A stretch of 64,000 bases of DNA, from the UHGV virus genome UHGV-0209088; one strand, 5' to 3'. This DNA comes from a virus. The notes under the pieces are model-generated. The model did no database searches. It saw only the letters and a list, made by a program, of their open reading frames with translations, and was not told the DNA's origin. A program made the position numbers and the translations under genes. Shown piece by piece: positions 4,125 to 61,320 of the stretch; position 1 is the stretch's first letter; every line of letters starts with the position of its first letter.

Positions 4125-4128
4125 TTTC

Positions 4129-10268: not shown

Positions 10269-10387
10269 AAATCCCGGGGTGTTGAGCGTTTTTAGAGGAA
10301 AGGCCGTGAATGGGTCAGAGTGTTAAACCATTGAAATCACGTCCAAAAAAGATTTCGCGTGACTTCCCGGTAAAGCGTGGTTTAAGA

Positions 10388-42228: not shown

Positions 42229-42849
42229 ATGACCGAACCGAAGAAACCAACCAGGGCGAGGAAAGCGCCCGCGAAACCCGGCGCCACAAAGGCGAGCGGG
42301 GTATCCGCTATTGGGCAGAAGGTCACCGACGCCGCCAAGACTGGCCGCCGTGGCTTTTCCGATGAGCTGAAAGCTGCCGCCCGCGCGCTGTGGGAGGGCG
42401 ACCCGAATATCAGCATGGCTGATGTCGCCGCAGAGGTGGGCGTCACCGTGCGCGCCATGCGGCGCTGGAGCCAGGATGAGAACTGGTCGAAGCGTCAGGC
42501 CGATATGTCCGAGCGCGCTCATGCGGCTGCCGACCAGTACAAGAACAAGCTCTCTGAGCTGGGGCCGGAGATCACCACCGAGCAGCAGAAGCAGGCCGAG
42601 TCCGACGCAGCGGAGGAGACCGCCGTGCAGCTGCGCGCCCAGGTGCTCGACCGCCACCGGAAGGAATGGAACGCGCCGCGCAAGCTCTCCTACGACGCGG
42701 TGAAGGCCAAGAACTTCGACCAGATGAAGATGGCCAAAATCACGGCTGAGGCGCTGACCCTGATCCAGAACGGCGAGCGCAAGGCGTGGGGCATCGATTC
42801 CGGGGGCGATGGGCAAACCAACGTGAAAGTCATTATTGAGCGTGAGTGA
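42229..42849 (+). CDS. HTH DNA-binding protein (terminase-small-subunit-like HTH)
   Basis: ISMADVAAEVGVTVRAMRRWSQDENW winged-HTH segment; basic N-terminus; coiled-coil C-terminus. Confidence 0.35.
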   Translation: MTEPKKPTRARKAPAKPGATKASGVSAIGQKVTDAAKTGRRGFSDELKAAARALWEGDPNISMADVAAEVGVTVRAMRRWSQDENWSKRQADMSERAHAAADQYKNKLSELGPEITTEQQKQAESDAAEETAVQLRAQVLDRHRKEWNAPRKLSYDAVKAKNFDQMKMAKITAEALTLIQNGERKAWGIDSGGDGQTNVKVIIERE

Positions 42850-44366
42850 TGGATAAAAACCTCGAAAAGATGCTGGGCTTCCGGCCTGATGCCATCCCGC
42901 AAATGCGGCTCAAGCCGGTTGAATCTCTGGTGGCCTACGCCCGCAACACCCGCACCCATTCAAAGGTGCAGGTCGAGCAGATCAAGCGCTCTATGCTGGA
43001 GTTCGGATGGACGAACCCCATTCTGGCGGATGATATGGGCATCGTGGCCGGGCATGGTCGCGTTATGGCTGCCGAAGAGCTGTACAAGGCCGGTGAGCAG
43101 ATCCTCTTCCCGAACGGCACGCCGATCCCCATCGGCCAGGTGCCGGTCATCGATTGCACCGGCTGGTCAGACGCGCAGCGCCGGGCGTACATCATCGCGG
43201 ATAACAAGCTGGCCCTGAACGCCGGCTGGGACGATGACATGCTGAGCCTCGAGCTGAAGGAGCTGGACGCGGCGGGCTATGACCTGGATGTCATCGGGTT
43301 CGATGAGAACGAGCTCGCGGAGCTGCTGGCCGATCCCGAGCTGGATCTTGATAGCGACAAAGACCCGGATGAGACACCGGACCTGCCTGATGCGCCGGCG
43401 AGCCGCGAGGGCGACACCTGGATCCTCGGCGCGCACCGGGTTCACTGCGGCAGCGCGACCAGTATGGATGCATGGGACCACCTGATGCAGGGCGAACTGG
43501 CCAACGCGGTATGGACCGACCCGCCATACAACGTCGATCTGGGCCTGAAGAACAAGCGGATGGATAAAGCCATTGGCGGCGAGCGGTTCGCCACTGGTGC
43601 GATCGCCAACGACAAGATGAGCCTGGAAGAGTTTGAGGCGCTGCTCTACGACGCGTTCAGCTGCCTGTTCTCGGTCATGCAGGCAGGGGCGGCCATCTAC
43701 GTGGCCCATTCCGACAAGGCCGGGCGCGAGTTCCGCGAGCAGTTCGAAAGGGCTGGCCTGCACTTTAGCCAGATGCTCATCTGGAAGAAGAACGTCCACG
43801 TTCTGGGGATGGCCGATTTCCAGCCCATTCACGAGCCGATCATGTACGGCTGGAAGAAGGGGAGCCGTCACAAGTGGCACGGCGGCCGCAAGCAGACCAC
43901 CGTCATGGAGATAGGCGAGGGCGGTCCGATCTCCCGGGATGAAGCCGGGCGCTGGCTCATCAAGGTGGGTGACAGCGTGCTGGTCGTGGACGGCCAGGCG
44001 GAACTGGCGGAGATCCCCTCGACCGTGTTCAATGTGCCGAAGCCGGAGAAGTCCGGCCTGCACCCGACGCAGAAGCCGGTGGAGCTCATCGAGCGCATGC
44101 TGCGCAACTCTGCCCGCGGCGGCGATATCGTGGTGGATGCGTTCGGCGGTTCGGGCTCAACGCTGATTGCCGCTGACCGTCTGGGCATGTGCGCCAGGCT
44201 GATGGAGCTGGAGCCGCGCTTTGTCGATGTCATCGTTCGCCGCTGGCAGGACTACACCGGGCGCCGGGCGGTTCACGCGCTCACCGGCGAGGAATTCCCC
44301 GAAGAGGGGCAGGAGCGGAAGACCGGCCCAATCCTCACCGACAACAGCGATACGGATGTGTTTTAG
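42846..44366 (+). CDS. ParB-like nuclease domain fused to an N4-C/N6-A DNA methyltransferase
   Basis: ParB N-domain (AYARNTRTHS...GHGRVMAA); MTase motif IV DPPYN; C-terminal SAM-binding region FGGSGST. Confidence 0.75.
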   Translation: MMDKNLEKMLGFRPDAIPQMRLKPVESLVAYARNTRTHSKVQVEQIKRSMLEFGWTNPILADDMGIVAGHGRVMAAEELYKAGEQILFPNGTPIPIGQVPVIDCTGWSDAQRRAYIIADNKLALNAGWDDDMLSLELKELDAAGYDLDVIGFDENELAELLADPELDLDSDKDPDETPDLPDAPASREGDTWILGAHRVHCGSATSMDAWDHLMQGELANAVWTDPPYNVDLGLKNKRMDKAIGGERFATGAIANDKMSLEEFEALLYDAFSCLFSVMQAGAAIYVAHSDKAGREFREQFERAGLHFSQMLIWKKNVHVLGMADFQPIHEPIMYGWKKGSRHKWHGGRKQTTVMEIGEGGPISRDEAGRWLIKVGDSVLVVDGQAELAEIPSTVFNVPKPEKSGLHPTQKPVELIERMLRNSARGGDIVVDAFGGSGSTLIAADRLGMCARLMELEPRFVDVIVRRWQDYTGRRAVHALTGEEFPEEGQERKTGPILTDNSDTDVF

Positions 44367-44601: not shown

Positions 44602-46383
44602 ATGAATATTACATATGGCTCTGTGTGCAGCGGCATCGAAGCTGCATCCATTGCATGGGAGCCGCTGGGGCTGAAGCCAGCGTGGTTTTCCGAGATTGAG
44701 GCTTTTCCGTCTGCTGTTCTGAAGCACCACTGGCCGCACGTCAGCAACCTCGGAGATATGACCAAAATCGCCGCCGCTGTGCGTGCTGGCACCGTTCCTG
44801 CTCCAGACATAGGCGTGGGTGGCACACCTTGTCAGGCATTTTCAGTCGCTGGCGCTCGCGCTGGCCTTTCAGACCCTCGCGGTCAACTCACCATTTCATA
44901 CGTGGAATTAGCCGATGCAATTGACGACACCCGAACCGCAGCCGGAAAACAGCCAGCCATCTTCGTCTGGGAGAACGTGCCCGGAGTCCTCAGCTCCAAA
45001 GACAACGCTTTCGGAGCCTTCCTTGGACTGCTTGCCGGGGAAGACTGTGAGCTACAACCGCCAGGGGGAAAATGGAAGAACGCTGGTTGTGTGCTTGGAC
45101 CCAAAAGAACAATCGCGTGGCGGGTCGTTGATGCCCAATATTTCGGAGTGGCCCAACGACGCCGCCGTGTGTTTGTTGTCGCAAGTGCTCGAACCGATTT
45201 CGATCCCCGAAAAGTATTTTTTGAGTCCGAAGGCGTGCGCCGGGATACTGCGCCGAGCCGAAGCGCGGGGTCGGCAGTTGCCGCCCTTACTGCGAATGGC
45301 GTTGGAACATGTGGTGCGGACGACAACCAAGGACAAGCAGGACACCTGATCGCTGCGTTCGGCGGTGGGAACTGCTCAGGCGCGCTGGATGTAGCGGCCT
45401 GCCTGACAGCGCGCGGCCAGCGCATTGACTTCGAAGTCGAGACCTTTCTCGCCCAGTACAGCAGCACCGGGCAGGGCGCATGGGCTGAGGGCTTTGGCAC
45501 GCTGCGCGCCAGAGAGCAGGAGAGCCACGAGCATCTGGCGGTGATGGCCGTTCACGGCACGCAGGATCCTGACACGCTCAACGAGCTGGCGCACACGCTG
45601 GGGCGCAATCAGGGGCAGGAGAACGCCGTCATCGCGTTCAACAGCAAAGACCACGGGCAGGATGCCGCGGAGGAAATATCCCCGACGCTGCGCTCCGCTG
45701 GTCACGGTACCAGCCACGCGAACGCTGGCGCGCCGCCTGCTGTGGCCTATGGCTTCCAGCCGCGTATTGCCCGCAACGGTCGCGGCGATATGGGCGATGT
45801 TTGCCACGCTCTTACTGCGGAGGCCGGGGAGACCGGGAAGGGGGATTCTGCGCCGCATGTGGCCGTTGCCTTCGCTGAGAACAGCCGCGGCGAAATCCGC
45901 CTTCAGGATGGCGACGGCGGCATCACCGGCCCGCTGTCTACCGGGGGCGGAAAGCCAGGGCAGGGTTATCCGGCAGTGGTCGCCTTTCAGGAACGCGGTC
46001 GCGCTGATGGTCGCACGCTGGAGATTAACGGCGATCTGGCCTACGCGCTGACAGCGCCAAACGGCGGTGGCCGGGCGCAGGAGCGGAACATTGTCGATTT
46101 CCGCACAATGGCCGTGCGTCGCCTGACGCCGCGCGAGTGCGAGCGCCTGCAGGGCTTCCCCGATGACCACACGCTCATCCCATACGGGAAGGCTATCAGG
46201 CCGGAGAAGCTGGAAGCGGACTACGCAAAATATCTGATGCGCGGCGGTCGCATGACCTTTGACGAGTGCTGCCGCGCTGCCGCTGATGGCCCGCGTTACA
46301 AGGCAATCGGCAATTCAATGGCGGTGCCGTGCATGGCTTGGATCGGTCGCCGCATCCTGCAACAGCTCGAGGGGGCTATGTGA
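44602..46383 (+). CDS. DNA cytosine-C5 methyltransferase (Dcm-like) with a long C-terminal extension
   Basis: Motif I region [13 protein letters not shown] motif [15 protein letters not shown] motif FVWENVPG. Confidence 0.8.
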
Positions 46384-47670: not shown

Positions 47671-48030
47671 ATGAGCCGCGCACTTACCCCTGAAGAACTA
47701 CGCAATAACGTCCTGAACCACGTCCGCCTGATGGTCGAATACTGGGCCACCCTGCCGGGCCTTGATGAGCACGCGCGCTGCGATGGCGTGGCGTTCTCGA
47801 TCCTCACCATGATTGACGGCAGCGCAGACCAGCCGCCGATGGCGCTGGTGGCGCTCTCCAGCGATGAGGACAAGCAGTATTACGTCGAGAAGGGCGAGAA
47901 CTGGGTCGAGCACGGCACCGTCATCAACGATGATGTGATGCTGCACGAGGAATATAACGCGCCTGAGCGCGCCGAATATGCCAAGTCCGTCATGAAATCA
48001 GCTGTGAAAGCTGACGACCAGAAGAACTAA
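47671..48030 (+). CDS. hypothetical protein (119 aa)
   Basis: Start set at the Met with an AGGAGGG Shine-Dalgarno. Confidence 0.35.
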   Translation: MSRALTPEELRNNVLNHVRLMVEYWATLPGLDEHARCDGVAFSILTMIDGSADQPPMALVALSSDEDKQYYVEKGENWVEHGTVINDDVMLHEEYNAPERAEYAKSVMKSAVKADDQKN

Positions 48031-48070
48031 CCTCTATAAATTCAATCACCTGCGCTGCGCCCTGACATTC

Positions 48071-48090
48071 TAGGGCGCAGGTAGGGCGCA
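48071..48090 (+). promoter_or_regulatory. TAGGGCGCA-gg-TAGGGCGCA direct repeat
   Basis: Exact 9-mers. Confidence 0.5.
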
Positions 48091-48104
48091 ATGTTCAATA
48101 TTAC

Positions 48105-48122
48105 TTGCTCAAATATGAGTAA
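48105..48122 (+). promoter_or_regulatory. palindrome TTGCTCA-AATA-TGAGTAA
   Basis: TTGCTC-N17-TTACAT promoter-like; heads a leader homologous to 44479-44601. Confidence 0.45.
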
Positions 48123-48225
48123 TTGAGTTACATTATCGGCTATCCCGTTTATTCACGGGAAACATGGCCCAGCGCTGCTGGCGTGACGACAATCAATAAG
48201 CCGCGAAAAACGCGGCGAGGAATTT

Positions 48226-49476
48226 ATGAATCGATATGAACTACACCTCGGCAACTGCCTTGAGGTGTTGAAGGACTTACCAGACAACTCCGTAGACAGT
48301 ATCGTCACCGACCCGCCATACGGCCTTAGCTTCATGAACAAGAAGTGGGATTATGATGTGCCGAGCGTCGAGGTATGGTCCGAATGCCTGCGAGTTCTGA
48401 AACCTGGCGGTCATTTGCTGTCGTTCGCTGGTACCAGAACTCAGCACAGAATGGCCTGCAACATAGAGGACGCTGGCTTCGAGATCCGCGACATGGTGTC
48501 ATTCCTCTACGACACTAATGAAACCGCTCAGGCACTGATTGAAAGCCTGACACCGGAACAGTTGAAAATGCTGGACGCCACCTTCGGTCGAGACTCTATG
48601 CTTGCATGGGTGTACGGCAGCGGTTTCCCTAAATCTCACAACCTCAAAGATGACTGGACAGGCTGGGGCACCGCCCTGAAACCAGCGCTGGAGCCAATCA
48701 CCGTAGCCCGTAAGCCGTTCAGAGGAACCGTTGCGGCAAACGTGCTGAAGCATGGCACCGGTGCTCTGAATATTGATGTGTGCCGTATCTCAACGGCAGA
48801 TAAGCTCGGTGGTGGCGCGGAAAAGGCGAAGAATGCTGGTCTAATCCATGAAGGGTGGCAGCGTCCGTGGATGAGCGACCCGCAAGCCGCTGAAGCGTAT
48901 GCGAAACGGATAAGAGAAAATGTCGAGAAGAGCGAAGCGCTAGGCCGCTGGCCTGCCAACTTGATTCACGACGGCAGCGATGAGGTTCTTGACCTTTTCC
49001 CTGAGACCAAATCAGGGGTCATGAAAGCAGGAACCCGGCGCGCTGCTCAGGATGAGCCTGGGAGCGTTTGTTACGGTACATACGGCGGCAATGCCGCGAG
49101 CACCGATACCTATGGGGATTCCGGTAGTGCTGCCCGTTTCTTCTACTGCGCGAAAGCTACTCGCAAAGACCGTAACGAGGGAATGCAGGATCCAGGCCCG
49201 CAGTTCGAACACGGCGCGACGCTGCGCAAGGTGGAGAATACCGAAACCAAAGGCAACAACCATCCGACAGTGAAGCCGACAGACCTGATGGCCTATCTAT
49301 GCAGGCTGGTCACGCCTCCTGGCGGAGTGGTGCTCGACCCTTTCATGGGAAGCGGAAGCACTGGAAAGGCGGCAATGCGAGAAGGGTTCCGATTTATCGG
49401 CATTGAGATGGACGCGGACTACCTTGCGATCGCTGAGGCGCGCATTGCGCATGAGGCCGGGAAGGGGGCAGCATGA
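48226..49476 (+). CDS. beta-class amino (N6-A or N4-C) DNA methyltransferase
   Basis: N-terminal motif IV DPPYGL; C-terminal motif I FMGSGSTGKAA. Confidence 0.75.
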   Translation: MNRYELHLGNCLEVLKDLPDNSVDSIVTDPPYGLSFMNKKWDYDVPSVEVWSECLRVLKPGGHLLSFAGTRTQHRMACNIEDAGFEIRDMVSFLYDTNETAQALIESLTPEQLKMLDATFGRDSMLAWVYGSGFPKSHNLKDDWTGWGTALKPALEPITVARKPFRGTVAANVLKHGTGALNIDVCRISTADKLGGGAEKAKNAGLIHEGWQRPWMSDPQAAEAYAKRIRENVEKSEALGRWPANLIHDGSDEVLDLFPETKSGVMKAGTRRAAQDEPGSVCYGTYGGNAASTDTYGDSGSAARFFYCAKATRKDRNEGMQDPGPQFEHGATLRKVENTETKGNNHPTVKPTDLMAYLCRLVTPPGGVVLDPFMGSGSTGKAAMREGFRFIGIEMDADYLAIAEARIAHEAGKGAA

Positions 49477-50211: not shown

Positions 50212-50547
50212 TCAGGCGACGATCCCCCTGACCGTCGCCATCACCTTTACCAGCGTCTCATCATCGACGCGTCCGAGCTGGTCCGCGTGCGATGCCTCAA
50301 TGGTGGCCAGCTTCACGGGCCGTATCATCGAAGGGGCGGGAAGCCCCGCCTTCTCATGACCGAATATAACCACATCATTATCCCACTGCCGGTTCTCGGC
50401 GCTGGTTATCATCGCCACCCAGAGCAGTGAGCTATCCGGTCCTATGCCGCCGCCAGAAACGACCAGAGCTGGCCTGTGCTGGCGGGTATTCTTGTCGGTG
50501 TAGGGGAAAGGTACGCGAACAACATCCCCCTGCTTAAAGGTTGGCAT
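50212..50547 (-). CDS. PemK/MazF-family toxin (type II toxin-antitoxin)
   Basis: MPTFKQGDVVRVPFPYTD...RPALVVS is the MazF/PemK N-terminal signature; overlaps the antitoxin stop by 14 nt. Confidence 0.6.
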   Translation of the reverse strand: MPTFKQGDVVRVPFPYTDKNTRQHRPALVVSGGGIGPDSSLLWVAMITSAENRQWDNDVVIFGHEKAGLPAPSMIRPVKLATIEASHADQLGRVDDETLVKVMATVRGIVA

Positions 50548-50764
50548 AGGCTCTCCGGTCCGCTTCGCTGTCCCACTCACTGAACGTCACGAACGGATCG
50601 TCAGCCTGCTGCGTTACCTCGGCGCGCATGAGCACGACGCGGCCATCTTCAATCTGGTAGGCCAGCTCGTCTCCAGGCTTCAGGTTGAGTGCATTGCGCA
50701 CTGCCTGCGGGATCGTCGTCTGGGCCTTGCTGGTCATCCTGCTGGTTATCACCGGCACCTCCAT
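50534..50764 (-). CDS. AbrB/MazE/SpoVT-type antitoxin
   Basis: TSKAQTTIPQAVRNALNLKPGDELAYQIEDGRVVL swapped-hairpin AbrB motif; start approximate. Confidence 0.5.
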   Translation of the reverse strand: MEVPVITSRMTSKAQTTIPQAVRNALNLKPGDELAYQIEDGRVVLMRAEVTQQADDPFVTFSEWDSEADRRAYANL

Positions 50765-51060
50765 TGCTCCATCTGATGTAAGGAATTTCCTTACCGATCG
50801 CAAGGGGGATGTATGCTGCGCTGCACAACATTGGTTTTCAAGGAGTCAAGCCCGCAATTGTCCGTGATATTGTGCATCGTAGCATGCTGAATTTCGAATC
50901 AGCGATCCTCGTCAACAACTTATCTTAGTCCTGCATACGGGACGGAACAGCCATGCTTGTCCGTATGCTAGCCCTCCCAATCAACGAAATTAGAACACAC
51001 CCATAAGAAGTGCCCATAGGCACCGATTCGATAAGAAAATAATCGCTTCTGGGGCTATTT

Positions 51061-51909
51061 ATGGAAGTAATTACTCGCATCCGCAGTGAGTCCGCGGAGT
51101 TGCGTCGCGTATCCGATCTAAAGGTCTATGAGTTCAAGGGGCATCAGGGAACGGACAATCTTAAATCCAATGATCATTTCGCCGTACTTATGAACAGCGG
51201 CGGTAGACTGAGCGTACAGTGGGAAGGCAATAAAACCTTGTGCAATGAAGTTGACGCAGGGGATGTGATATTCAGCCCGTCAGGCTCGACAATCTCATGC
51301 AATCATCGAGAGGCCGTAAGCAGCTCTTTCATAGCACTGAAACAGTCAGTGTTCGTGAACGCTTCGAAAGATCATGTTGATTACGGTAGTATTGATTTTA
51401 CCGGGCGACACATCAGGCGGCCAGTGACCACGACCATGGCCATGACCCTTCGCAACCTGAGTTCAGTTGAATCCTATCAGGAATGGCCGATGCTGATCGA
51501 GTCTGCCACTCTCGCGTTTGTGATAGCGCTGATTTCTGCGCTGTCTCCTGCTGCTACAAAGGCGTTCCGTGAAAAGCCATACGGGATAGGTGATGTGCGC
51601 AAGAAGCGGGTGGTTGAGTACATCGACGCGCACCTCACCAGAACGATATCCCTGGCTGAACTGGCGTATGAGGTTGGACTGAGCCAGTACCACTTCTCGC
51701 GGCTTTTCAAGAAGCGCTTCGGCATGAGTATCATGGAATACATCAGCATGCGTCGGGTTGAGGTGGCGAAGGAAAAGCTGCAACTGACCGGCGATACGCT
51801 GGCGAGTATCGCCCACGACTGCGGGTTTTGCAGTCAAAGCCACTTCACTGGGGTTTTCGTGAGGATCACCGGCGTTACGCCAGCAGCGTACCGTAATGGC
51901 GCAAAGTAG
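51061..51909 (+). CDS. AraC/XylS-family transcriptional regulator (AT-rich moron)
   Basis: C-terminal dual HTH (LSQYHFSRLFKKRFGMS...IAHDCGFCSQSHFTGVF); gene GC content visibly lower than flanking DNA. Confidence 0.8.
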   Translation: MEVITRIRSESAELRRVSDLKVYEFKGHQGTDNLKSNDHFAVLMNSGGRLSVQWEGNKTLCNEVDAGDVIFSPSGSTISCNHREAVSSSFIALKQSVFVNASKDHVDYGSIDFTGRHIRRPVTTTMAMTLRNLSSVESYQEWPMLIESATLAFVIALISALSPAATKAFREKPYGIGDVRKKRVVEYIDAHLTRTISLAELAYEVGLSQYHFSRLFKKRFGMSIMEYISMRRVEVAKEKLQLTGDTLASIAHDCGFCSQSHFTGVFVRITGVTPAAYRNGAK

Positions 51910-51927
51910 GAGGATCAGCTACTCAGG

Positions 51928-51940
51928 CTGACGCTCTAAA
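51928..51940 (+). repeat. GCTGACGCTCTAA post-stop motif
   Basis: 19 nt after the stop at 51909. Confidence 0.4.
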
Positions 51941-51987
51941 TGTGATCGCTGGTTAAAATCAAGGAATTGCCGTGAGCGCTCTGAAAT

Positions 51988-52007
51988 CAGGGCGCAGATA
52001 GGGCGCA
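51988..52007 (+). promoter_or_regulatory. cAGGGCGCA-ga-TAGGGCGCA direct repeat
   Basis: One mismatch in the first copy. Confidence 0.45.
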
Positions 52008-52053
52008 ACAACACGCAAAATCGTCGTGACCATACACTGGCTGCATCATTCTT

Positions 52054-55000
52054 TTGCGGCCAGTATGTATGCGACTCGTTCTCCTCAAAGCTCAGAAGTT
52101 TGCCAACCAGGCGGGTTATTACCTGCTGAACGGTCGTTGGCACAAAACCTCGCAGGATAAGCCTGCTCCGAAAGGCGCGCCGGTTTCCGCGCATCCTCAC
52201 TCCGCGGGTAAACCCGTCGCGAAAGAGACGCTGGCTGACCACGAGTGGCAGCAGCTGCAGCTCCCTGCCGAGAACGTCAACGCGAAGACCTTCAACAAGC
52301 AGCTCGACCAGCTCAAAGCGGCGGCCGTCGCCGGTGACGTGACTGGCATTCTGGGAAGCGGCTATGGCACGAACACCTACGGCAAAAAACTCGCGATCAT
52401 TGCGAACCACGTTCTCGGGCTGCTGGGCAGTGACCATAAGGTTACCCCGGGCCAGAAAGCTGGCACGCACGCCGCTGTGCAAACCGCGCCAGAGATCGAG
52501 GCAGAAGCGCCAGCGCCGAAGCCGGAGCCAAAAGCAGAGCCGGAGCCGAAGGCCGAAGAGAAACCTGCAGCGCCGGCGCCGGAGAAAAAGGCCGACGCAG
52601 AACTGGCGGTGCCGGAGTTTGCCGAAGGCAAGCAGGCCAAAGGCGTGAAGGCCCACTACGAGAAGGTGGCGAAGAAGATCATCCGCGCCGCCAAGGCCGG
52701 TGACCTGTCTGCGCTCCAGTTCATGGCAAAACCTGACCAGACGAGCTGGAAGGGTAAGACCGACAACAGCAAGAAGCTGATAGCGCTGCACCAGGCGGCG
52801 ATCGCTTACGCTCAGGCCAACAAGCCGGCTGGCAAAGACATCCAGCATCCGGACGCGGAGAAGCAGGCCGCGAAGGAGGCGAAGGAGCTCGCGAAAGAGC
52901 AGGGCACTCCTGAGAAGGCACCAGAACCGGAGAAGAAGCCGAAGCCAGCCAAAGCGGAAGAGCCGAAATTCACCGACAAGGGGACGCTCGCCAATCCGTC
53001 CGGATACGGGAAGACTTTCGCCAACCTGAAACAGGCCAACGCCGCGGCTGAGAAGCTGAAGGCGCAGGGGCATGATGTCTATGTCACCGCGCAGCACCCG
53101 TATCAGGTGAAACTCAATAAGCCGGAGCCGAAGCAGGAAGCCAAACCAGATCCGAAGCCGGAGCCGGCGAAGCAGGAAACCAAAGAACAGCCTAAAGGCG
53201 ACGCAGCCGGCAAGCTGTCCCAGATCCCGTGGGACAACCTGCTGCTGCCGGACAGCAACAAGAACGCCAAGAGCCACAACAAGCAGGTCGCCAAGATTAA
53301 GGCGATGGCTGAGGCTGGCGACATCGAGGGGCTGAAAAACTTCAAGGCTGGCACCAACACCTACGGCAAGAAGCAAAACCTGCTGGCCCAGACTGCACTG
53401 GCGGCGCTGGAAGAGTCTGCGCCTGCACCCAAGGCTGAGGAGAAGGCAGCGCCGGATGAGAAGCCGAAGGCCGCTGAACCTGCCGCCAATGGGTTGCCGA
53501 AGAAGCCGGACAACGCCGGTAAGTGGCAAGACACGGTGGATGCGCTGGAAGGTTGGGCGAAGAGCGGCAATCTCACCGAAGCCGAGAGCATGTATTACGA
53601 CCTGTATTCGCTGGTCGATGAAATGCCGGACGCAATGCCGATCCTGCACTACGCCCAGGATGTGGTCTCTCACATCAAGAAGGCTGGGGCAGAACAGGGT
53701 GGCAAGCCGCAGAAGCCGACCGGCCTCACCAGCGTCCACTGGAACTCGACCGTCAACGAGATCGAAGCGCAGATGGAGGCCGGGAACGAAGCCTATCTCC
53801 AGACCAAGGTAGAGCAGACTGCTGGCCTGGCGTCTGCCGAAGCGAAGTCTGTACATGATTACGCCGTTGGCGCGCTTGGGTTCGTGCAGGACCAGAAGCA
53901 GGGCAACAGCGCCAGCACCGAAAACGACGGCCCGATGGAAGGGGAGACCAAGCAGGGCGCGAACGGCACGCTCGTGTTCCACAATGGCCGCTGGCACAAA
54001 CAGGGCGATGAGAAGGCGGCAGAGAAACCGGCGCCAGCTGGCCCGGCTGATGTCGAGATCCCGACCTTCAACGGCCCCAATGCCACCCATAACGCGTGGC
54101 TGCAGAAGGCCGCTGAGGCGCTGAAAGAGAAGGTGGTTTCCGAGGGCAAGGACGGCCTGAAACAGCCGCTGACGAACCACAAGAATGGCTCGGTAACGGT
54201 CAACATCGCTGGCGTGAAGGTCGGCAAGGCCAGCGTGACCAGCTCAAACCCCGCGATCGCGAAATTCGCCCAGTTCGTGGATGAGCTGAAAGCCTCTGTC
54301 GGCAAGGTGAAGAAGGCCAAGCCGGCACCGAAGGCGACGCAGGCTCCAGCGCCGGCCGCCGAGCCGGAGCAGCCGAAGCAGCTCGAGAGCATGGACAGCT
54401 GGACGCAGACTGGCGGCCAAGGCGGTTCGAACCCTGGCGGGAAGTTCAAGGACGAGAACGGCGTCGAGTGGTACTGCAAGTTCCCAGAGAACGACCATAT
54501 CGCGAAGGCCGAGGTGCTGGCCGCGAAGCTCTACTCCGCGCTGGGCCTGAACGCTCAGGATGCGAAGCTCGTCACCAAAGATGGCAAGGTGGGCATCGCC
54601 AGCCGCTGGGTGAACGTCAAGAAAGCATCTCCGAAAGAGCTGGCCCAGACCCCGGGCGTTCTCGAAGGCTTCGCCGCTGACGCGTGGCTCGCGAACTGGG
54701 ATGTGGTGGGTCTCGGCTTCGATAACCTGCAGGTGGATGACCAGGGGCACGCCATGCGCGTCGACGCTGGTGGCTCCCTCATGTACCGGGCTCAGGGCAG
54801 CAAGAAGGCGTTCGGGGAACACGTCACCGAGCTGGACAGCCTGCGCGATCCGAAAATCAACCCGCAGGCGGCCGCAGTGTTCGGCCAGATGTCTGAGGCT
54901 GACATCACGGCGTCGGTGGCGAAGGTCGCGCAGATCTCCGATGCGCAGATCCGCATCATGGTGAACAACTTCGGCCCGGGCGATAAGGCCGAGCGGAAGG

Positions 55001-56121
55001 CGCTGGCTGAGACGCTGATTGCGCGCAAGAACGACCTGATCGCGAAGTACCCGAAGTCCGTGAAGGTCAAGAAGAAGCGCCTCGACCCGGAAAACCTGCC
55101 GGTGAAAGAGGATCGCCTGCCGAAAGAGCACGACTTCGCCAACTGGAACGGCCCGGGCGCCGGTCTGTCAGGGAAGGCTCACGTCAACGCCGCCAACCAG
55201 AAGGTTGAGAGCGAGATGCTGGCCATCGCGAAATCGGGCAACCTGACCAAGCTGAAGGACTACAAATTCCAGCCGGTTGACATTGCCACGGGCGAACCGA
55301 AAGGCGAACCGATCCCGGTGGGCCAGCACCCGTCGAAGCATGTGCAGCAGTTCCACCAGGACCTGATTCAGGCGCTGGATGAAATCGCGAACCCGCCGCA
55401 GCCGCTGAAGATCTTCCAGGAATCCGACCTGAACACGTTGGATGAGCTGGATATGGCCTTCCCGTCGAAGAAATTCGGCACGACGGTCAACGCCGTTCAT
55501 TCGAACGAGAAGATGGGATTTTGGGTGGTTCTCGGCGGCGTCCACAAGGCGGCCGAGAAGTTCATGCCGAAGAAGATCACCCACTTCACCACTCAGGCTA
55601 TCGACGCGGCCTACCAGAAGTTCAAGGAGGGTTCGAAGCTGGCGAAGCACTTCGTTCTCTCCGTGCAGGCGTCAGGCAGCTACAACGACCTGTTCCGCGA
55701 GGGCAAGGAGACGGACCACGCCGGGAACAAGCTGTCTGATGTGGCGAAAGCCGCGATGGAGTTTGCCACCGAGCAGCCGGAAGGGACGACCGTCTACCGC
55801 TGGCAGCACATGACCAAGGACATGGTGGACAAGATCATGAGCGCGCCGGACGGTACGGTGTTCCAGGCGACCGGCCCTATGTGTACCTCGATGTCGCCTA
55901 CGGCCACCTCGCACTTTGGCCCGCACCGGATCACCATCCATTACGCGAAGGGTGCGAAGGCGGTCGAGAGCTTCGGATCCGGCAAGTTCGCGGGCGAGAA
56001 GGAAGTCACAACGTTACCGAACAGCCGGTTCGTCATTCTCAAGAAAGAGATGGTCCCGGCTGGCAGCGGGAAACGCATGGAGCTGGAAGTGCTTATGCTT
56101 CCGCCTGACCTTGGGTTATAA
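52054..56121 (+). CDS. giant multidomain protein (1355 aa): N-terminal tandem repeats, kinase-like motif set, C-terminal ADP-ribosyltransferase-like (R-S-ExE) domain
   Basis: Repeated ~45-aa modules ending NTYGKK; Pro/Glu/Lys-rich PEPK linkers; GGQGGSNPGGKF / WYCKF / DAWLAN / RVDAGG (kinase-like); VYRW ... CTSMS ... AGEKEV (Arg-Ser-ExE ART triad). Start codon uncertain (TTG at 52054 or ATG at 52069). Confidence 0.45.
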   Translation: MRPVCMRLVLLKAQKFANQAGYYLLNGRWHKTSQDKPAPKGAPVSAHPHSAGKPVAKETLADHEWQQLQLPAENVNAKTFNKQLDQLKAAAVAGDVTGILGSGYGTNTYGKKLAIIANHVLGLLGSDHKVTPGQKAGTHAAVQTAPEIEAEAPAPKPEPKAEPEPKAEEKPAAPAPEKKADAELAVPEFAEGKQAKGVKAHYEKVAKKIIRAAKAGDLSALQFMAKPDQTSWKGKTDNSKKLIALHQAAIAYAQANKPAGKDIQHPDAEKQAAKEAKELAKEQGTPEKAPEPEKKPKPAKAEEPKFTDKGTLANPSGYGKTFANLKQANAAAEKLKAQGHDVYVTAQHPYQVKLNKPEPKQEAKPDPKPEPAKQETKEQPKGDAAGKLSQIPWDNLLLPDSNKNAKSHNKQVAKIKAMAEAGDIEGLKNFKAGTNTYGKKQNLLAQTALAALEESAPAPKAEEKAAPDEKPKAAEPAANGLPKKPDNAGKWQDTVDALEGWAKSGNLTEAESMYYDLYSLVDEMPDAMPILHYAQDVVSHIKKAGAEQGGKPQKPTGLTSVHWNSTVNEIEAQMEAGNEAYLQTKVEQTAGLASAEAKSVHDYAVGALGFVQDQKQGNSASTENDGPMEGETKQGANGTLVFHNGRWHKQGDEKAAEKPAPAGPADVEIPTFNGPNATHNAWLQKAAEALKEKVVSEGKDGLKQPLTNHKNGSVTVNIAGVKVGKASVTSSNPAIAKFAQFVDELKASVGKVKKAKPAPKATQAPAPAAEPEQPKQLESMDSWTQTGGQGGSNPGGKFKDENGVEWYCKFPENDHIAKAEVLAAKLYSALGLNAQDAKLVTKDGKVGIASRWVNVKKASPKELAQTPGVLEGFAADAWLANWDVVGLGFDNLQVDDQGHAMRVDAGGSLMYRAQGSKKAFGEHVTELDSLRDPKINPQAAAVFGQMSEADITASVAKVAQISDAQIRIMVNNFGPGDKAERKALAETLIARKNDLIAKYPKSVKVKKKRLDPENLPVKEDRLPKEHDFANWNGPGAGLSGKAHVNAANQKVESEMLAIAKSGNLTKLKDYKFQPVDIATGEPKGEPIPVGQHPSKHVQQFHQDLIQALDEIANPPQPLKIFQESDLNTLDELDMAFPSKKFGTTVNAVHSNEKMGFWVVLGGVHKAAEKFMPKKITHFTTQAIDAAYQKFKEGSKLAKHFVLSVQASGSYNDLFREGKETDHAGNKLSDVAKAAMEFATEQPEGTTVYRWQHMTKDMVDKIMSAPDGTVFQATGPMCTSMSPTATSHFGPHRITIHYAKGAKAVESFGSGKFAGEKEVTTLPNSRFVILKKEMVPAGSGKRMELEVLMLPPDLGL

Positions 56122-56142
56122 TGTATATTATTTGAGGAATAG

Positions 56143-56643
56143 ATTATGACCGATAAGAAAGAGATCGAGGGCACGCCGGAACGCGCCGCCGACCGCGGGC
56201 GCGAGGTGGATCTCGGGTTCAGCATGGACCCGCGCCCCTCTCTGGGTAATGCCGATGTTGTGCGCGAGCTGGTGTCGAAATTCGGCTCCGAAGTCGTGGC
56301 GGTCCGCCGTGACTACCTGGAAGACAAGCTGACCGGGCCGGAGGCTCAGGCCCGCATCCGCGACCTGGCGCGCGATTACGGCGCCATTGTCATGGGGCGC
56401 GACGCAGACTATTTCTCGCTGCCATGGAACAGCGAGGCCCGGCTTGGCCGCCGCATCAAGCTGGTTGTGCCGGCTGTCGAGGGCGTGAACGATCCCGGCG
56501 AGCTGCTGTTCCTGACCGTGGGAACCTCCCTTTCGAGTCTGGCGGCAAGCCACGAAGCTGGCCGGGTGACCGATAAAGAGGCCGAGCACCATACCAAGGA
56601 CATGCTCGAGGATACCGCCAATCTGATACTGGGGCTGCGCTGA
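56143..56643 (+). CDS. hypothetical protein (165 aa), candidate partner or immunity protein of the giant protein
   Basis: Begins 21 nt after the giant gene and is coupled (ATGA) to the NUDIX gene. Confidence 0.3.
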   Translation: MMTDKKEIEGTPERAADRGREVDLGFSMDPRPSLGNADVVRELVSKFGSEVVAVRRDYLEDKLTGPEAQARIRDLARDYGAIVMGRDADYFSLPWNSEARLGRRIKLVVPAVEGVNDPGELLFLTVGTSLSSLAASHEAGRVTDKEAEHHTKDMLEDTANLILGLR

Positions 56644-57413
56644 TGGACTTCCTGAAAGCTCACGTTAAGGGCTACTCTCGCCGGGACGGCACCTATGTCC
56701 CGCCGCACGAGCGCAAGGACGGGCCGGGTGCAGCACCGGAGAAACCGGTCTACCACCACCCGCGGCTGAGCGAGAACGGCCACAAGGTGCAGATCAAGAA
56801 CCCGACGCACGCTTCATCCCACACCACCTGGCACAACCCGAAGGCGGTGGCCACGTTCGTGCCGAACGGCGATGTGCCTGCCTCCCTCAACGGCGTCGCG
56901 CTGACCAGATGGAAGAACCCGCCTCGCACTCTGGAGGGCTGGGACTACGTGGACGGCGTGAACGATGACCTGCAGGAACCGCCGTTTCACCTGCCCGATG
57001 GCAAGCACGCGAGCTCAGGCGTCATCATCGAAGAGCCTGACGGGCGCGTCTGGGTGATTTCCCCCACCAACCAGTTCGGCGGCTACGAGGCCACGTTCCC
57101 GAAAGGGACGGCGGAGCCGGAGCTGTCGCTGCAGGCCAACGCCATCAAAGAGGCGTTCGAAGAGTCCGGCCTGAAGGTGGAGATCACCGGCTTTATCGGG
57201 GATTTCGAGCGCACCACGTCGGTGGCGCGGATGTACAAGGCCCGACGCATCGGCGGGTCGCCGGTCCATATGGGCTGGGAAACCCAGGCGGTCCACCTCG
57301 TTCCCAAAGAACAAATGTACAAATTACTCAATATGTGGCCGGATCATCCCATAGCTGAAAGTATTGGCGCTGGTAAAGCACCAGTAAAGCCAAGTAAAAA
57401 AATTGTGGAATGA
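56643..57413 (+). CDS. NUDIX hydrolase with an ~110-aa N-terminal extension
   Basis: Nudix box GTAEPELSLQANAIKEAFEESGL (Lys in place of the usual Arg in the REUxEE core). Confidence 0.6.
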   Translation: MDFLKAHVKGYSRRDGTYVPPHERKDGPGAAPEKPVYHHPRLSENGHKVQIKNPTHASSHTTWHNPKAVATFVPNGDVPASLNGVALTRWKNPPRTLEGWDYVDGVNDDLQEPPFHLPDGKHASSGVIIEEPDGRVWVISPTNQFGGYEATFPKGTAEPELSLQANAIKEAFEESGLKVEITGFIGDFERTTSVARMYKARRIGGSPVHMGWETQAVHLVPKEQMYKLLNMWPDHPIAESIGAGKAPVKPSKKIVE

Positions 57414-57485: not shown

Positions 57486-57884
57486 ATGTGGATCATGCTG
57501 AACAATGCTTTCATTTCTGTAGTCGATAAAGCGCCGAACCCTGAACAGCTCGTGGTTCGTGCTCGTGTGGAAGGCCACATCGAGGCGGTATTCCCGCAGG
57601 CTGAGGTCATCCGTGATGCGTCCGGCGACTACCTGTTCCGGGCCTTCATTGACCGCCGTGTTGTGGCGGCTGCGATGCAGCGCGCGGTAATGGACATCGA
57701 CTACCCGAACTTCAAAAACAGCATCAAAGACGACCGCTACCACGATGCCTGTTCCAGCGTCTGGGGTGTGATGTCACGGTTGCAGCCGGTTCGCCCGTAC
57801 TCCGGTCGTCCATCCCGCAACTATGACCTGTTTGGCGCTGGCGGCGCTGGCAAAACTTCAACCCGCGCGAAAAAGGCTCGCTAA
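57486..57884 (+). CDS. hypothetical protein (132 aa)
   Basis: ORF starts right at the terminator's T-tract with no Shine-Dalgarno; start uncertain. Confidence 0.3.
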   Translation: MWIMLNNAFISVVDKAPNPEQLVVRARVEGHIEAVFPQAEVIRDASGDYLFRAFIDRRVVAAAMQRAVMDIDYPNFKNSIKDDRYHDACSSVWGVMSRLQPVRPYSGRPSRNYDLFGAGGAGKTSTRAKKAR

Positions 57885-59632
57885 TGAACGCTGTAGTCCA
57901 GAACCTGCACGGCGAGCTGGTCGATGGCATGGAGTTCTTCGCTCCGGCCTCGACCGACCTGCTGGACAGCCTGCTGGGGCAGTACAAGCAGCTCCGGGCC
58001 GACATCGAAATGATGGCAGGGCTGGTAACCACTCACCACGCGTCAGTTTACCATTTCCTGAACGGGAACAGAGGCGACCGCGACCGCACCCATCGTAGCG
58101 TGGCGGAGATCTTCAAGCTGGAAGGTGCCATCGGCAGCCTGAACGCTGAGTTCTGGTCGAAGGCGCTCAAATTGACCGACGTGTACGAGTACATGCCCAA
58201 CAACCGGCGCGAAGAGTGGAACGAGCAGATCCGCAACCCGCTGGGGGTGAAAGCTCCGCGCATCAGCGATTACGATTTACGCCATGGCGTAGAGCAGAAG
58301 GAATGGACAGTCGCCCCTCTGCCAGATTTCGAGGAAGAGGCGGTGCGTCCTACTATCATGGCGCTGCTCAATGCGCGCCAGCAGTTCTTCTCTGAGCGCG
58401 TTGACGGGATTTTCCGCGCGCTGTCCGGCGAGCATGTGACGAACCGCCCTGAAGGCTTCGGGAAGCGCATGATCCTCGCCCGCGTCTTCAACGAGTGGGG
58501 CAGCACAGACTACAAAATGGCTGGCTACATTCACGATTTGCGCATCGTGATCGCCAAGTTCATGGGCCGCGACGAGCCAAATGGGTGGGCACCGACCGAC
58601 GCCGCTCTGCTGGCAGCACGTCGCCGCCCTGGCGAGTGGTTAACGATTGACGGCGGCGCGCTGCGCATTCGTGGCTATCTGAAGGGTACGGCGCATCTGG
58701 AAGTTCACCCAGAAATGGCTTGGCGTCTTAACTGCATTCTGGCGCAGCTCTACCCGCTGGCGATCCCGCCGCAGTTCCGCCAGAAGCCGAAGCGCAAGCT
58801 CAAAGACTTTGTGATGATGGGCAAGCCGTTGCCGTTCGCGGTGCTGGGAGTGCTCGCAGGGATGAAGGCCGAGAAGCATACGCCATGGCGTGCTGATCGC
58901 TGGGAAGAACCACGCCAGCCTCTCACCACTAACCCGTTCAACCGTCGATTTGAATGGCGTGATGAGGGTAAGGCCGTCCTTTCTCAGGCTGAAAAGGTGC
59001 TGGAGAGTATCGGCGGCGTGAAGGTGATGGCCGGGCCGAAACAGAATATCGCGATCTGGGAGTTCGACTATGAGCCGGGCAGCGTTCTGGACGAGATTAT
59101 CGCGTCTGGCTGCATACCAGACCATCAATCGCACCAGTATTACCCGACGCCTGATGGTCTGGCGGAACTGGCCGAGAGCATTCTCGAAATCGGCCCCGAG
59201 CATAAGTGTCTGGAGCCGAGCGCAGGGCAGGGCGGTCTGGCGAAGTACATGCCAGCCGAGCGCACGACCTGCGTGGAGATCTCCAAGCTGCATTGCAAGG
59301 TGCTGGAGGCGAAGGGCTTCAACGTGCAGCAGGCAGATTTCATCGCGTGGGCGGATACCGTCAAATACCCGATCTTCGATCGCGTTCTGATGAACCCGCC
59401 GTTCTCCGAAGGCCGGGCAAAGGCTCACGTAGAGGCCGCTGCCTCGCTGGTGAAGAAGGGTGGCCGTCTTGTGGCGATCCTGCCGTCAGGGATACGCAAT
59501 ACCGATATCCTGCCGGGCTGGGATGTGAGCTGGACGCAGGTATTTGATAATGAATTCGGCGGCACGTCCGTCTCGGTGGTCATCCTGAAGGCTGACCGTA
59601 AAGCAGATAACCGGAAGGCTTCGGCCCTCTAA
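57884..59632 (+). CDS. large fusion: ~400-aa N-terminal domain of unknown function plus a C-terminal amino (N6-A-type) DNA methyltransferase
   Basis: C-terminus has motif I LEPSAGQGGLAKY and motif IV NPPF (MNPPFSEG). Confidence 0.6.
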   Translation: MNAVVQNLHGELVDGMEFFAPASTDLLDSLLGQYKQLRADIEMMAGLVTTHHASVYHFLNGNRGDRDRTHRSVAEIFKLEGAIGSLNAEFWSKALKLTDVYEYMPNNRREEWNEQIRNPLGVKAPRISDYDLRHGVEQKEWTVAPLPDFEEEAVRPTIMALLNARQQFFSERVDGIFRALSGEHVTNRPEGFGKRMILARVFNEWGSTDYKMAGYIHDLRIVIAKFMGRDEPNGWAPTDAALLAARRRPGEWLTIDGGALRIRGYLKGTAHLEVHPEMAWRLNCILAQLYPLAIPPQFRQKPKRKLKDFVMMGKPLPFAVLGVLAGMKAEKHTPWRADRWEEPRQPLTTNPFNRRFEWRDEGKAVLSQAEKVLESIGGVKVMAGPKQNIAIWEFDYEPGSVLDEIIASGCIPDHQSHQYYPTPDGLAELAESILEIGPEHKCLEPSAGQGGLAKYMPAERTTCVEISKLHCKVLEAKGFNVQQADFIAWADTVKYPIFDRVLMNPPFSEGRAKAHVEAAASLVKKGGRLVAILPSGIRNTDILPGWDVSWTQVFDNEFGGTSVSVVILKADRKADNRKASAL

Positions 59633-60303: not shown

Positions 60304-60559
60304 AACCATCTGGGACGGCGAGCAGCTGCCGCCGACAGGCTGCGAGGTGCTGATCCACCTGGCGAGCGTGGACAAGTGGGTGCCGTATACCGTGGAAGGC
60401 TTCACTATCAAGAAGCAGCCCGAGGGTTACGACCAGTACACGATCCATGTCACCGTCTATCGGACAGAAGGCGGCAAGAAGATCACCAATTGCCGCCTGC
60501 TGGGGGATATTCGCCCGGTGGACTGGCGGGAAGGGGAAGGGATCAGCTCCCAAGGCTGA
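60293..60559 (+). CDS. hypothetical protein (88 aa)
   Basis: ORF. Confidence 0.3.
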   Translation: MGTKTIWDGEQLPPTGCEVLIHLASVDKWVPYTVEGFTIKKQPEGYDQYTIHVTVYRTEGGKKITNCRLLGDIRPVDWREGEGISSQG

Positions 60560-60615
60560 ATCTGCGCACGAAATCCGCCAGTGCTTTCAATGGCTGGCGG
60601 CACAAATCCACGAGA

Positions 60616-60635
60616 TAGGGCGCTCATAGGGCGCA
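60616..60635 (+). promoter_or_regulatory. TAGGGCGCt-ca-TAGGGCGCA direct repeat
   Basis: Abuts the Shine-Dalgarno of the gene at 60646. Confidence 0.5.
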
Positions 60636-60645
60636 GGAGAAAGGA

Positions 60646-61047
60646 ATGAGCAATTTTAGAGGTGAAAAATTAAACCCCCTGGAAGTGATAAAGCAACAGA
60701 TTGGTATTACTTGCGACCATATCACTTATGACCCGACACTGAGAAAATCAAAATCCCAGTACCAGAGAATCCGCCAGTGCTCACATGACGGAACGATGAT
60801 CTTCACATGCGAATTGCTGGCAGATACCCTGCTGGACCTCATAAATATGCGGTCGTATGCCAAGAACTTCCCACCAGAAGAAGGAAAAACGGTTGTGGGA
60901 ATCAAGTACACGGTAGGTTCTCTTTGGCTTAGCACTGTTTGGGGAACGGTAGAATTACCAGCGGGAACATACCCCGGGCAATGCCAGCGCACCAGAATGT
61001 CTGTTGTCTGCGAATACATTTACGCAGAAGCACCGCAGCCGGAATAA
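60646..61047 (+). CDS. hypothetical protein (133 aa), AT-rich moron
   Basis: GC content clearly below that of its neighbours; Cys-containing. Confidence 0.35.
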   Translation: MSNFRGEKLNPLEVIKQQIGITCDHITYDPTLRKSKSQYQRIRQCSHDGTMIFTCELLADTLLDLINMRSYAKNFPPEEGKTVVGIKYTVGSLWLSTVWGTVELPAGTYPGQCQRTRMSVVCEYIYAEAPQPE

Positions 61048-61052
61048 CGCTT

Positions 61053-61283
61053 ATGACCCCGCAGGTCGAAAACGCCCTACGCTCTGTGGCAAGGGAATGC
61101 CGCAAAGCCGTGCTGGAGGCCATCGAGGATAAGCCAAAGGCGCAGCACGACGCCATAACTACCGCGCTGCTGGACCAGTACGCCACGCGCATCAAATCCC
61201 TACCGCCTGGCACATTCTCTGCGAAGCTCTGGCTGGTCTACTACATCCGCCTCATCGATAAGGAAGCACGGGGTAAGTCGTGA
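61053..61283 (+). CDS. hypothetical protein (76 aa)
   Basis: Start set at the internal Met of track ORF 60939..61283. Confidence 0.3.
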   Translation: MTPQVENALRSVARECRKAVLEAIEDKPKAQHDAITTALLDQYATRIKSLPPGTFSAKLWLVYYIRLIDKEARGKS

Positions 61284-61320
61284 CAGCACAATGGCGTAAA
61301 TTTCTGAGGACTTTTACGCC

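Follow-up and report, generated by a model that had tools for sequence, protein, structure and literature searches.

A phage cassette combining a kinase-like and ADP-ribosyltransferase protein with a NUDIX hydrolase and small partner proteins is related to the Pseudomonas syringae effector HopAG1

To our knowledge, ADP-ribosyltransferases (ARTs) packaged in the phage head are an accepted early weapon of phages, and T4 Alt alone among them has been studied in depth. The encoding of head-packaged Alt/VIP2-family ARTs near packaging genes is a published theme (PMC5512222, PMC9503650). The polyvalent proteins of Verrucomicrobia, Chlamydia, and Bacteroidetes elements carry a kinase of the truncated Ser/Thr/Tyr type with an HxD motif (PMC5512222, PMC5576092), and the Bacteroides prophage ART Bxa has the immunity proteins Bsi and BAH (PMC11699363). 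In P. syringae, the effector HopAG1 has been described as an N-terminal ART with a C-terminal NUDIX domain (PMC9963460), and a hopAG1-hopAH1-hopAI1 operon has been described (PMC11002349). Here, we present a locus from a 64,000-nucleotide stretch (the window) of UHGV virus genome UHGV-0209088. Positions 52054–57413 of the window are a conserved cassette, probably reaching 57884, that lies between a DNA methyltransferase block and the packaging genes and encodes a giant protein with kinase-like and ART domains, a 165-amino-acid (aa) protein, and a NUDIX hydrolase. We consider it probable, with considerable room for doubt, that this cassette is an Alt-like set of effectors delivered by the virion for host takeover or counterdefense.

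Searches by megablast and tblastn recovered the locus in eight isolated phages of 86 to 95 kb: Aeromonas phage ST4; Pseudomonas phages Jeremy, Dolphis, and Touem01; Escherichia phage ECML-606-1; Enterobacter phage phiT5282EW; Yersinia phage fHe-Yen8-01; and Morganella phage Mecenats66. Full-length homologues of the giant protein were present in ST4, Jeremy, fHe-Yen8-01, and metagenomic phage contigs. The order of giant gene, ~160-aa open reading frame (ORF), NUDIX gene, and ~130-aa ORF was kept in isolated phages, metagenomic phage contigs, and prophages (Microvirga, Geminicoccus, and others), and the cassette was still kept across distant relatives in which identity of the small ORF fell to 30%. 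In these relatives, it is core, syntenic, and co-oriented with the train of genes running from replication to packaging, and the terminase and portal genes lie 3 to 7 kb downstream of the NUDIX gene. The 132-aa ORF of the window has homologues in nine loci (L001, L002, L003, L005, L006, L007, L009, L085, and L086) and is kept directly after the NUDIX gene in every relative examined, independently of the methyltransferase downstream in the window. It had no match in Pfam or PADLOC, and its conserved position suggests that it may be a fourth cassette member. Two side observations concern the small-ORF slot: the Jeremy gene at this place (L002, 10527–11030) encodes a protein that has no BLAST match to the 165-aa protein of the window and yet is matched by the family hidden Markov model (HMM), and a further 165-aa protein (P0109) is 72% identical to that of the window.

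The genes on the other side of the cassette behave differently. The MazEF pair and the AraC-family regulator upstream are neighboring accessory genes outside the conserved cassette: a counterpart of the AraC gene (39% identity, same place) was found in ST4 only, and both AraC and MazEF vary among relatives. In two other loci, a different PemK/MazE-like pair lies directly upstream of the giant gene, divergent as in the window (L003, 3174–3742, and L004, 276–844, both on the minus strand); the MazF of the window had no tblastn match to this slot. The position before the cassette is either a hotspot for moron insertion or a recurrent site of toxin-antitoxin association. This neighborhood bears on the idea that the locus is itself a moron, expressed from the prophage for defense, superinfection exclusion, or abortive infection through ADP-ribosylation and phosphorylation. 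The phage is temperate, since it carries an integrase homologue, the locus adjoins typical morons (MazEF and the low-GC AraC gene), and ART, kinase, and Nudix domains are all known from defense systems. However, PADLOC gave no match for the giant, 165-aa, or NUDIX proteins, the cassette is core and syntenic while AraC and MazEF vary, and its GC content is normal, whereas that of the AraC region is 0.49 against ~0.60 nearby in the composition profile. The fusions to head domains and the virion annotations presented below also speak against a defense role, which had been one suggestion of the sequence-only reading, gained no support here, and is in our judgment very unlikely.

The giant protein joins two predicted catalytic domains. 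Searches with its single sequence were nearly blind, as PHROGs, NCBIfam, and PADLOC returned nothing and Pfam a weak ADPrib_exo_Tox match only, and both fold assignments needed family profiles and a structure model. For the kinase-like domain, no Pfam, NCBIfam, or PHROG model matched; in the structure model, residues 778–1000 are predicted to form a bilobal protein-kinase-like fold of the CtkA/CotH/PI4K2/HipA branch. Such a fold had been proposed beforehand for residues ~790–930, and the Gly-rich loop, β3 Lys, αC Glu, D-x4-N loop, and DFG-like Asp all lie where they had been placed. A homologue search with residues 770–1355 showed that residues ~778–1000 are a discrete module of ~220 aa that moves among very different proteins. 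In an alignment of 31 such modules, K809, E820, N881, D883, and D904 were invariant, D876 was present in at least 90%, and the positions of secondary-structure elements agreed. Searched against the PDB, the family profile reached LepB at an E value of 0.24 only, and relatives showed subthreshold matches to HipA_C. The catalytic residues of the kinase domain are intact, and we infer that it phosphorylates host proteins.

The family to which this domain belongs is large. Among 1.84 billion representatives of clusters at 50% identity, the kinase-like profile matched 5,905 clusters at an E value of ≤1e-3 and 3,527 at ≤1e-30. When one genome per species was scanned, 130 relatives came to light, nearly always in proteins of 600 to >4,000 aa, and the domain also occurs in multiple copies in gut Gastranaerophilales. 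As side observations, some family proteins hold two to five copies of the domain (P0207, with 3416 aa, has five matched stretches), and the maximum length was 7004 aa.

The C terminus of the giant protein can be assigned, on profile and motif evidence, to the R-S-ExE ARTs of the Alt/VIP2/C2-C3-like clade. Taken singly, its sequence gave weak evidence (Pfam ADPrib_exo_Tox, PF03496, E = 0.048; phmmer against the PDB, Vip2, E = 0.15), and its score of 13.4 bits to PF03496 falls under the gathering cutoff of 23.4; the Jeremy and L005 homologues, at 32.6 and 29.9 bits, exceed it. A 16-sequence profile matched Vip2 (E = 7.9e-10), Vis (3.4e-6), and SpvB (1.3e-5) in the PDB, as well as VsdC, C3larvin, CdtA, iota toxin, and C3. 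Aligned with Vip2, TVYR1249W corresponds to TVYRW, CT-S1279 to STS, and GE1315KE1317 to SEKE; across the 16 homologues, S1279, E1315, and E1317 were invariant and R1249 was mostly R with a few K. This profile and the invariant residues bear out the C-terminal ART that had been read from motif spacing. The ExE pair is the arginine-specific signature among C2/C3-like toxins, and the domain would be expected, as an Arg-type ART, to ADP-ribosylate host proteins with NAD+.

The NUDIX protein scores 39 bits to PF00293 against a cutoff of 21.1, and its closest solved structure is the Ap4A hydrolase 3i7u (E = 9.5e-6). Its Nudix box, GTAEPELSLQANAIKEAFEESGL, keeps the core EUXEEXGU of the consensus GX5EX7REUXEEXGU intact, with R replaced by K and the first Glu one position early. 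The NUDIX start codon overlaps the stop codon of the 165-aa ORF, which is in turn tightly coupled to the giant gene and has no enzymatic features.

Delivery with the virion is suggested by the company that the kinase-like domain keeps. Among 42 sampled proteins containing it, Pfam identified ADPrib_exo_Tox in 14, MuF in 14, the ART family PF01129 in 7, NUDIX in 6, minor capsid protein 2 (Phage_min_cap2) in 2, and Acb1 in 1, and 16 of the 42 carried a MuF or minor-capsid-protein-2 head domain fused to the kinase-like domain. At 37 of 79 genome loci, an ART was found within the same protein as the kinase domain, a rough count by an iterated ART HMM that was still growing. Single chains combine minor capsid protein 2, kinase, and ART (P0060) or 2H phosphoesterase, kinase, and ART (P0076). 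In the GenBank record of Yersinia phage fHe-Yen8-01 (OR620963), the 2146-aa giant homologue is noted as "phage particle associated protein" and the next two genes as "particle associated protein"; these two genes encode the homologues of the small ORF (30% identity over 69 aa, E = 1e-6) and of the NUDIX protein of the window (53% identity, E = 8e-100). We favor Alt-like delivery because of these particle notes, the MuF and minor-capsid fusions, and the proximity of terminase and portal, and the same evidence favors the virion-injected effector that was the first suggestion of the sequence-only reading. Separately, Endozoicomonas species (L023–L034) were seen to hold many paralogous proteins of ~1350 aa in which a phage MuF domain stands at the N terminus, ahead of the kinase-like domain, with at least five loci encoding MuF and kinase-like proteins in E. 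atrinae. Other carriers of the domain include one with Acb1 (anti-CBASS), another with a C5 DNA methylase, and another with a WXG100-like domain.

For this phage, we infer that the cassette proteins are built into the virion and enter the cell alongside the DNA, in the manner of T4 Alt. The N-terminal half of the giant protein, made of ~63-aa helical modules and linkers rich in P, E, K, and A, might serve as a scaffold or as a region for virion targeting or ejection, and its kinase and Arg-type ART would target host components as infection begins. The NUDIX protein could be a co-delivered third activity on an ADP-ribose- or NAD-type pyrophosphate, which might trim protein-bound ADP-ribose to phosphoribose and thereby block reversal by the host or, alternatively, destroy immune signals that are nucleotides or derive from ADP-ribose. 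The 165-aa helical protein may be a dedicated partner, acting as a chaperone or adaptor or as a temporary inhibitor that silences the enzymes in the producing cell. Several points weigh against this explanation. The virion link is an annotation note in one relative's record, in which the small-ORF homology is weak, and no publication behind these notes was found in the literature, nor was a proteomics paper for related phages. Pfam detected no MuF, portal, minor capsid, or other recognizable head-anchoring domain in the giant protein of the window, and the terminase lies outside the window, with proximity to packaging genes taken from the relatives. Scans for promoters and terminators yielded nothing above chance, and the timing of expression is not defined by such signals. 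Finally, the closest structural neighbors of the kinase-like domain include lipid kinases (MavQ and PI4K2A) alongside protein kinases, and the Nudix box departs from the consensus, a variant that HopAG1 carries as well.

The link to HopAG1 emerged from three P. syringae-complex genomes (L042, L043, and L054) that carry the kinase-like domain. In P. cerasi (L042, 5179–7323), the domain lies in a 715-aa protein that we identify as HopAG1 because the next two genes encode its operon partners, a GH5 protein (HopAH1) and a VRP3/SpvC-family protein (HopAI1). Residues 275–495 of HopAG1 share 38% identity with the kinase-like domain of the window (E = 2e-46), and residues 503–694 share 44% identity with the NUDIX protein, including its family-specific extension (E = 5e-48); residues ~101–268 are a distant R-S-ExE ART detected by iterated HMM alone (E = 3.6e-5). 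On these alignments, genuine P. syringae HopAG1 is best read as consisting of ART, kinase-like, and NUDIX modules homologous to those of the phages. A kinase domain in HopAG1 is not mentioned in the literature that could be searched. The direction of transfer is explained more simply as phage to effector.

The homology of all three domains to a type III effector also raises the possibility of a lysogenic-conversion or eukaryote-directed toxin, acting on animal, plant, or protist cells as HopAG1 does in plants. The kinase-like domain is present in many copies in Endozoicomonas, an animal symbiont, and in Gastranaerophilales of the gut, and the nearest solved ARTs (Vip2, iota toxin, and C3) target eukaryotic proteins. 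However, secretion signals and receptor-binding and translocation domains are absent, the Endozoicomonas domain is fused to phage MuF, and the phages that carry the cassette infect hosts that are diverse and free-living (P. putida, Aeromonas, E. coli, and Morganella). We give this explanation very little credence.

The NUDIX protein also travels with the kinase outside HopAG1. Over its full length, it matched (45–57% identity) the N-terminal ~300 aa of ~530-aa proteins that end in a second copy of the kinase-like domain; in L003, L005, and L009, such a NUDIX-kinase fusion lies within the cassette, adjoining the giant kinase-ART protein, and P0064 unites the kinase-like domain, NUDIX, and ART in a single chain. 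These fusions bear on a polymorphic-toxin-like module, in which the giant protein would be a toxin released at lysis or to competitors, with binding immunity from the 165-aa protein and enzymatic immunity from the NUDIX protein. The gene order of toxin, small protein, and ADP-ribose-acting enzyme parallels Bxa-Bsi-BAH (PMC11699363), the small ORF is tightly coupled to the putative toxin gene and lacks enzymatic features, and both N-terminal carriers and C-terminal cargo vary among family members. Against this, many relatives, and the translocated HopAG1 too, have NUDIX on one polypeptide with the kinase and/or ART, and an immunity role for it is disfavored because an enzyme conferring immunity would not accompany its own toxin. 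Furthermore, a Nudix enzyme cleaves the pyrophosphate of an ADP-ribose mark and leaves phosphoribose on the target, and the residue is not restored. The homologues of the small and NUDIX proteins are, in addition, labeled particle associated. Immunity by the NUDIX and 165-aa proteins, which the sequence-only reading had put forward as a second option, is weakened accordingly, and we think the toxin-immunity arrangement distinctly unlikely; a reduced version, in which the 165-aa protein inhibits transiently or serves as a chaperone, would fit with virion-delivered effectors.

Within the virion-effector explanation, the relation among the three activities can be read in two ways. In the first, they are independent effectors that travel together without a common pathway, the NUDIX protein being an anti-signaling or decapping enzyme; this is a subvariant of virion delivery and not an alternative to it. 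Polyvalent proteins mix unrelated activities (PMC5512222), the kinase domain is also fused to Acb1, 2H phosphoesterase, WGR, and C5 methylase, and this NUDIX is confined to 13 of 79 loci. That the triad recurs in differing orders, in phages of proteobacteria, in an 828-aa metagenome protein, and in HopAG1, tells against independence, and we hold this first reading to be possible without favoring it. In the second reading, kinase, ART, and NUDIX would form one pathway that writes a composite mark irreversible by the host, invented by phage ejection proteins and later captured whole by P. syringae as HopAG1. The ART would modify arginine, the NUDIX enzyme would trim the mark to phosphoribose, and the kinase might add phosphate to the ribose or to a neighboring residue, or it might prime the target. 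Coupling is favored by the repeated appearance of the triad in lineages and domain orders that differ, and modular independence by the wealth of other fusion partners; the single pathway is rather improbable on balance. If it were true, the CtkA-like domain would be the founder of an uncurated family of ~5,900 clusters of phage-delivered kinases. The recurring ART-kinase-Nudix linkage hints in any case at multistep ADP-ribose chemistry, akin in spirit to that of the Legionella SidE enzymes.

The N-terminal half of the giant protein is conserved in parts among its full-length homologues (Table 1). Residues ~3–144 share 83% identity with ST4 and 68% with Jeremy and are also kept in fHe-Yen8-01, and residues 6–62 are a candidate virion-targeting region. 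When the first 140 aa were used to look for further cargo proteins on the same carrier, two fragments were all that was returned. Repeats in this half had been described as at least four tandem modules of ~45 aa ending in NTYGKK. The modules are real, and their details differ: the iterated HMM gave a module of ~63 aa, with two strong and two divergent copies and weaker traces at residues 562–584 and 1048–1071; NTYGKK is present only twice (residues 107 and 435); and the copies are interspersed and not tandem because five linkers rich in P, E, K, and A and other segments separate them. Self-BLAST of the giant protein did not detect the internal repeats that the iterated HMM found. A GRWHK-type motif occurs at residue 27 (52120–52146) as well as at residues 621–650, and in homologues from L003, P0006, and P0039 the latter motif adjoins a WGR domain. 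A WGR domain in the window protein itself was rejected, as Pfam shows none, and the GRWHK-type motif alone was kept. Between the kinase-like and ART domains, the middle region (residues 1005–1184) was found in the phage subfamily only and holds a weak repeat copy and an invariant HP(S) motif.

The window is a stretch of a temperate tailed-phage genome of ~90 kb, with tail-fiber genes at 496–5464 and helicase and primase genes also present. The ORF listing agrees with the positions read beforehand for the giant, 165-aa, NUDIX, MazF-like, MazE-like, and AraC genes, the quoted motifs were all recovered at the expected residues by motif search, and Pfam confirmed the NUDIX, MazEF-like, and AraC calls. 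The true start of the giant gene is probably ATG 52069 (giving 1350 aa), as the annotated ST4 homologue begins at the residue matching M6. An antisense ORF of 753 aa (51919–54180, minus strand) was discarded as an artifact that lies wholly within the conserved coding region of the giant gene, where the coding strand is purine rich and of low complexity, with AT skew up to 0.57. The MazF-like and MazE-like genes overlap at 50534–50580, with the antitoxin gene upstream of the toxin gene, as in MazEF/PemIK systems. Methyltransferase genes lie on either side of the locus, as had been proposed (48226–49476 and 57884–59632), and the four in the window are an unusually heavy anti-restriction load for a phage. 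One of the four is a fusion with a ParB domain, and that at 57884–59632 belongs to phrog_6263 and weakly matches the MADS defense methyltransferase Mad2. Further dips in GC at 48000–48499 and 60500–62000 (0.50–0.53 against ~0.60) may be further morons.

Table 1. Features of the UHGV-0209088 window (positions are those of the window)
Feature	Position	Strand	Evidence or detail
Integrase homologue, tyrosine or serine type	8899–10269	-	phrog_1, E = 8e-48
Four DNA methyltransferase genes	42846–44366, 44602–46383, 48226–49476, 57884–59632	+	
MazF/PemK toxin	50212–50580	-	Pfam PemK_toxin, 48 bits, E = 1.6e-12
PrlF/MazE-type antitoxin	50534–50803	-	PrlF_antitoxin, 44.5 bits, E = 1.9e-11; MazE_antitoxin, 34.4 bits, E = 2e-8
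AraC-family regulator, moron	51061–51909	+	Pfam HTH_AraC, E = 1.7e-26
Giant effector ORF (putative)	52054–56121	+	1355 aa from TTG 52054
Conserved N-terminal segment, residues 6–62, with first GRWHK motif	52069–52239	+	Homologue identity
Repeat copy 1, residues 63–125, ending NTYGKK-LAIIANHVLGLLG	52240–52428	+	Iterated HMM, E = 3.6e-31
Repeat copy 2, divergent, residues 203–251	52660–52806	+	E = 8.6e-7
Repeat copy 3, residues 391–453, with NTYGKK	53224–53412	+	E = 3e-31
Repeat copy 4, partial, divergent, residues 481–515	53494–53598	+	E = 1.5e-10
Five P/E/K/A-rich low-complexity linkers	52465–52641, 52843–52986, 53098–53214, 53386–53511, 54289–54396	+	Composition scan; strong purine (AT) skew
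Motif GPxEGxTKxGAxGxLVxxNGRWxK, residues 621–650	53914–54003	+	59% identity to L003, 41% to P0006
Predicted atypical protein-kinase-like domain, residues 778–1000	54385–55053	+	Catalytic set K809, E820, D876, N881, D904
Conserved middle region, residues 1005–1184	55066–55605	+	Alignment of 16 homologues; custom HMM matches in 12 loci
Predicted R-S-ExE ADP-ribosyltransferase domain, residues ~1185–1355	55606–56118	+	R1249, T1278-S1279, E1315-K-E1317
165-aa all-helical protein, conserved partner gene	56146–56643	+	GAGGAA ribosome-binding site
NUDIX hydrolase, 256 aa, with ~120-aa family-specific N-terminal extension	56643–57413	+	PF00293, E = 1e-9
132-aa ORF directly after NUDIX	57486–57884	+	tblastn, 38–78% identity, same position, nine loci

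Parts of this system are already known. The gene family is in GenBank as "ADP-ribosyltransferase," several of the isolated-phage records label the giant gene in this way and the third gene "NUDIX hydrolase," and the general head-packaged strategy is published. The earlier statement that no described phage module has this architecture therefore overshoots. The literature yielded no account, however, of the CtkA-like kinase domain, of its association with ART and NUDIX, or of kinship with HopAG1. The large uncurated CtkA-like kinase family, its coupling to ART, NUDIX, and head domains, the small partners, and the homology of the set to HopAG1 appear to be undescribed. The locus presents a widespread second design beside that of T4 Alt, in which an ART is combined with an uncurated atypical kinase (~5,900 clusters), a dedicated Nudix protein, and a small helical partner. 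HopAG1 is a core and biochemically uncharacterized P. syringae effector whose central third now gains a testable assignment as a kinase, and a tractable phage system and a plant effector can inform each other.

Comparison with described systems places the cassette beside several of them. T4 Alt and the Alt/VIP2 family (Iyer et al. 2017, PMC5512222; Iyer et al. 2022, PMC9503650) share with it a phage R-S-ExE ART encoded near packaging genes; the best match of the window ART is Vip2, its relatives are MuF fused or annotated as virion associated, and early modification of host proteins is predicted for both. Compared with T4 Alt, the window protein is much larger, has an N-terminal half of repeats and linkers and an extra CtkA-like kinase, and is partnered by a small helical protein and NUDIX; a MuF or T4-type capsid-targeting region was not detected in it, and its packaging is a prediction. 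The polyvalent and MuF-anchored polymorphic toxins (PMC5512222, PMC5576092) are likewise large, multienzyme proteins of mobile elements that swap carrier and cargo, and the giant protein, with kinase and ART in one 1355-aa phage polypeptide, has multiple effector domains as they do. In contrast to the polyvalent-protein kinase, the window domain, with its complete C-lobe and its catalytic loop DAWLANWD, resembles CtkA and HipA. The assignment as a polyvalent protein of a conjugative element was dropped, as the plasmid collection gave no match. Helicobacter pylori CtkA (PDB 3akj), Bacillus CotH, HipA, and type II PI4K share 11–17% identity with the window domain, which, unlike them, reaches no Pfam family threshold and is embedded in phage effector proteins.

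The resemblance to Bxa lies in a prophage ART that has a dispensable carrier N terminus and is encoded ahead of a small protein and an ADP-ribose-acting enzyme. However, BAH is an ADP-ribosylhydrolase that reverses the modification, unlike a Nudix enzyme, and NUDIX proteins of the window type are fused with toxin domains in relatives. HopAG1 shares all three catalytic modules with the phage cassette. It is one 715-aa chain, in the order ART-kinase-NUDIX, with a type III secretion N terminus, and acts in plant cells, whereas the phage version is split into two genes, kinase-ART and then NUDIX, and has a large repeat N terminus and a small partner protein. With its split genes, other domain order, and phage context, the cassette is a relative, and not a member, of the HopAG1 family.

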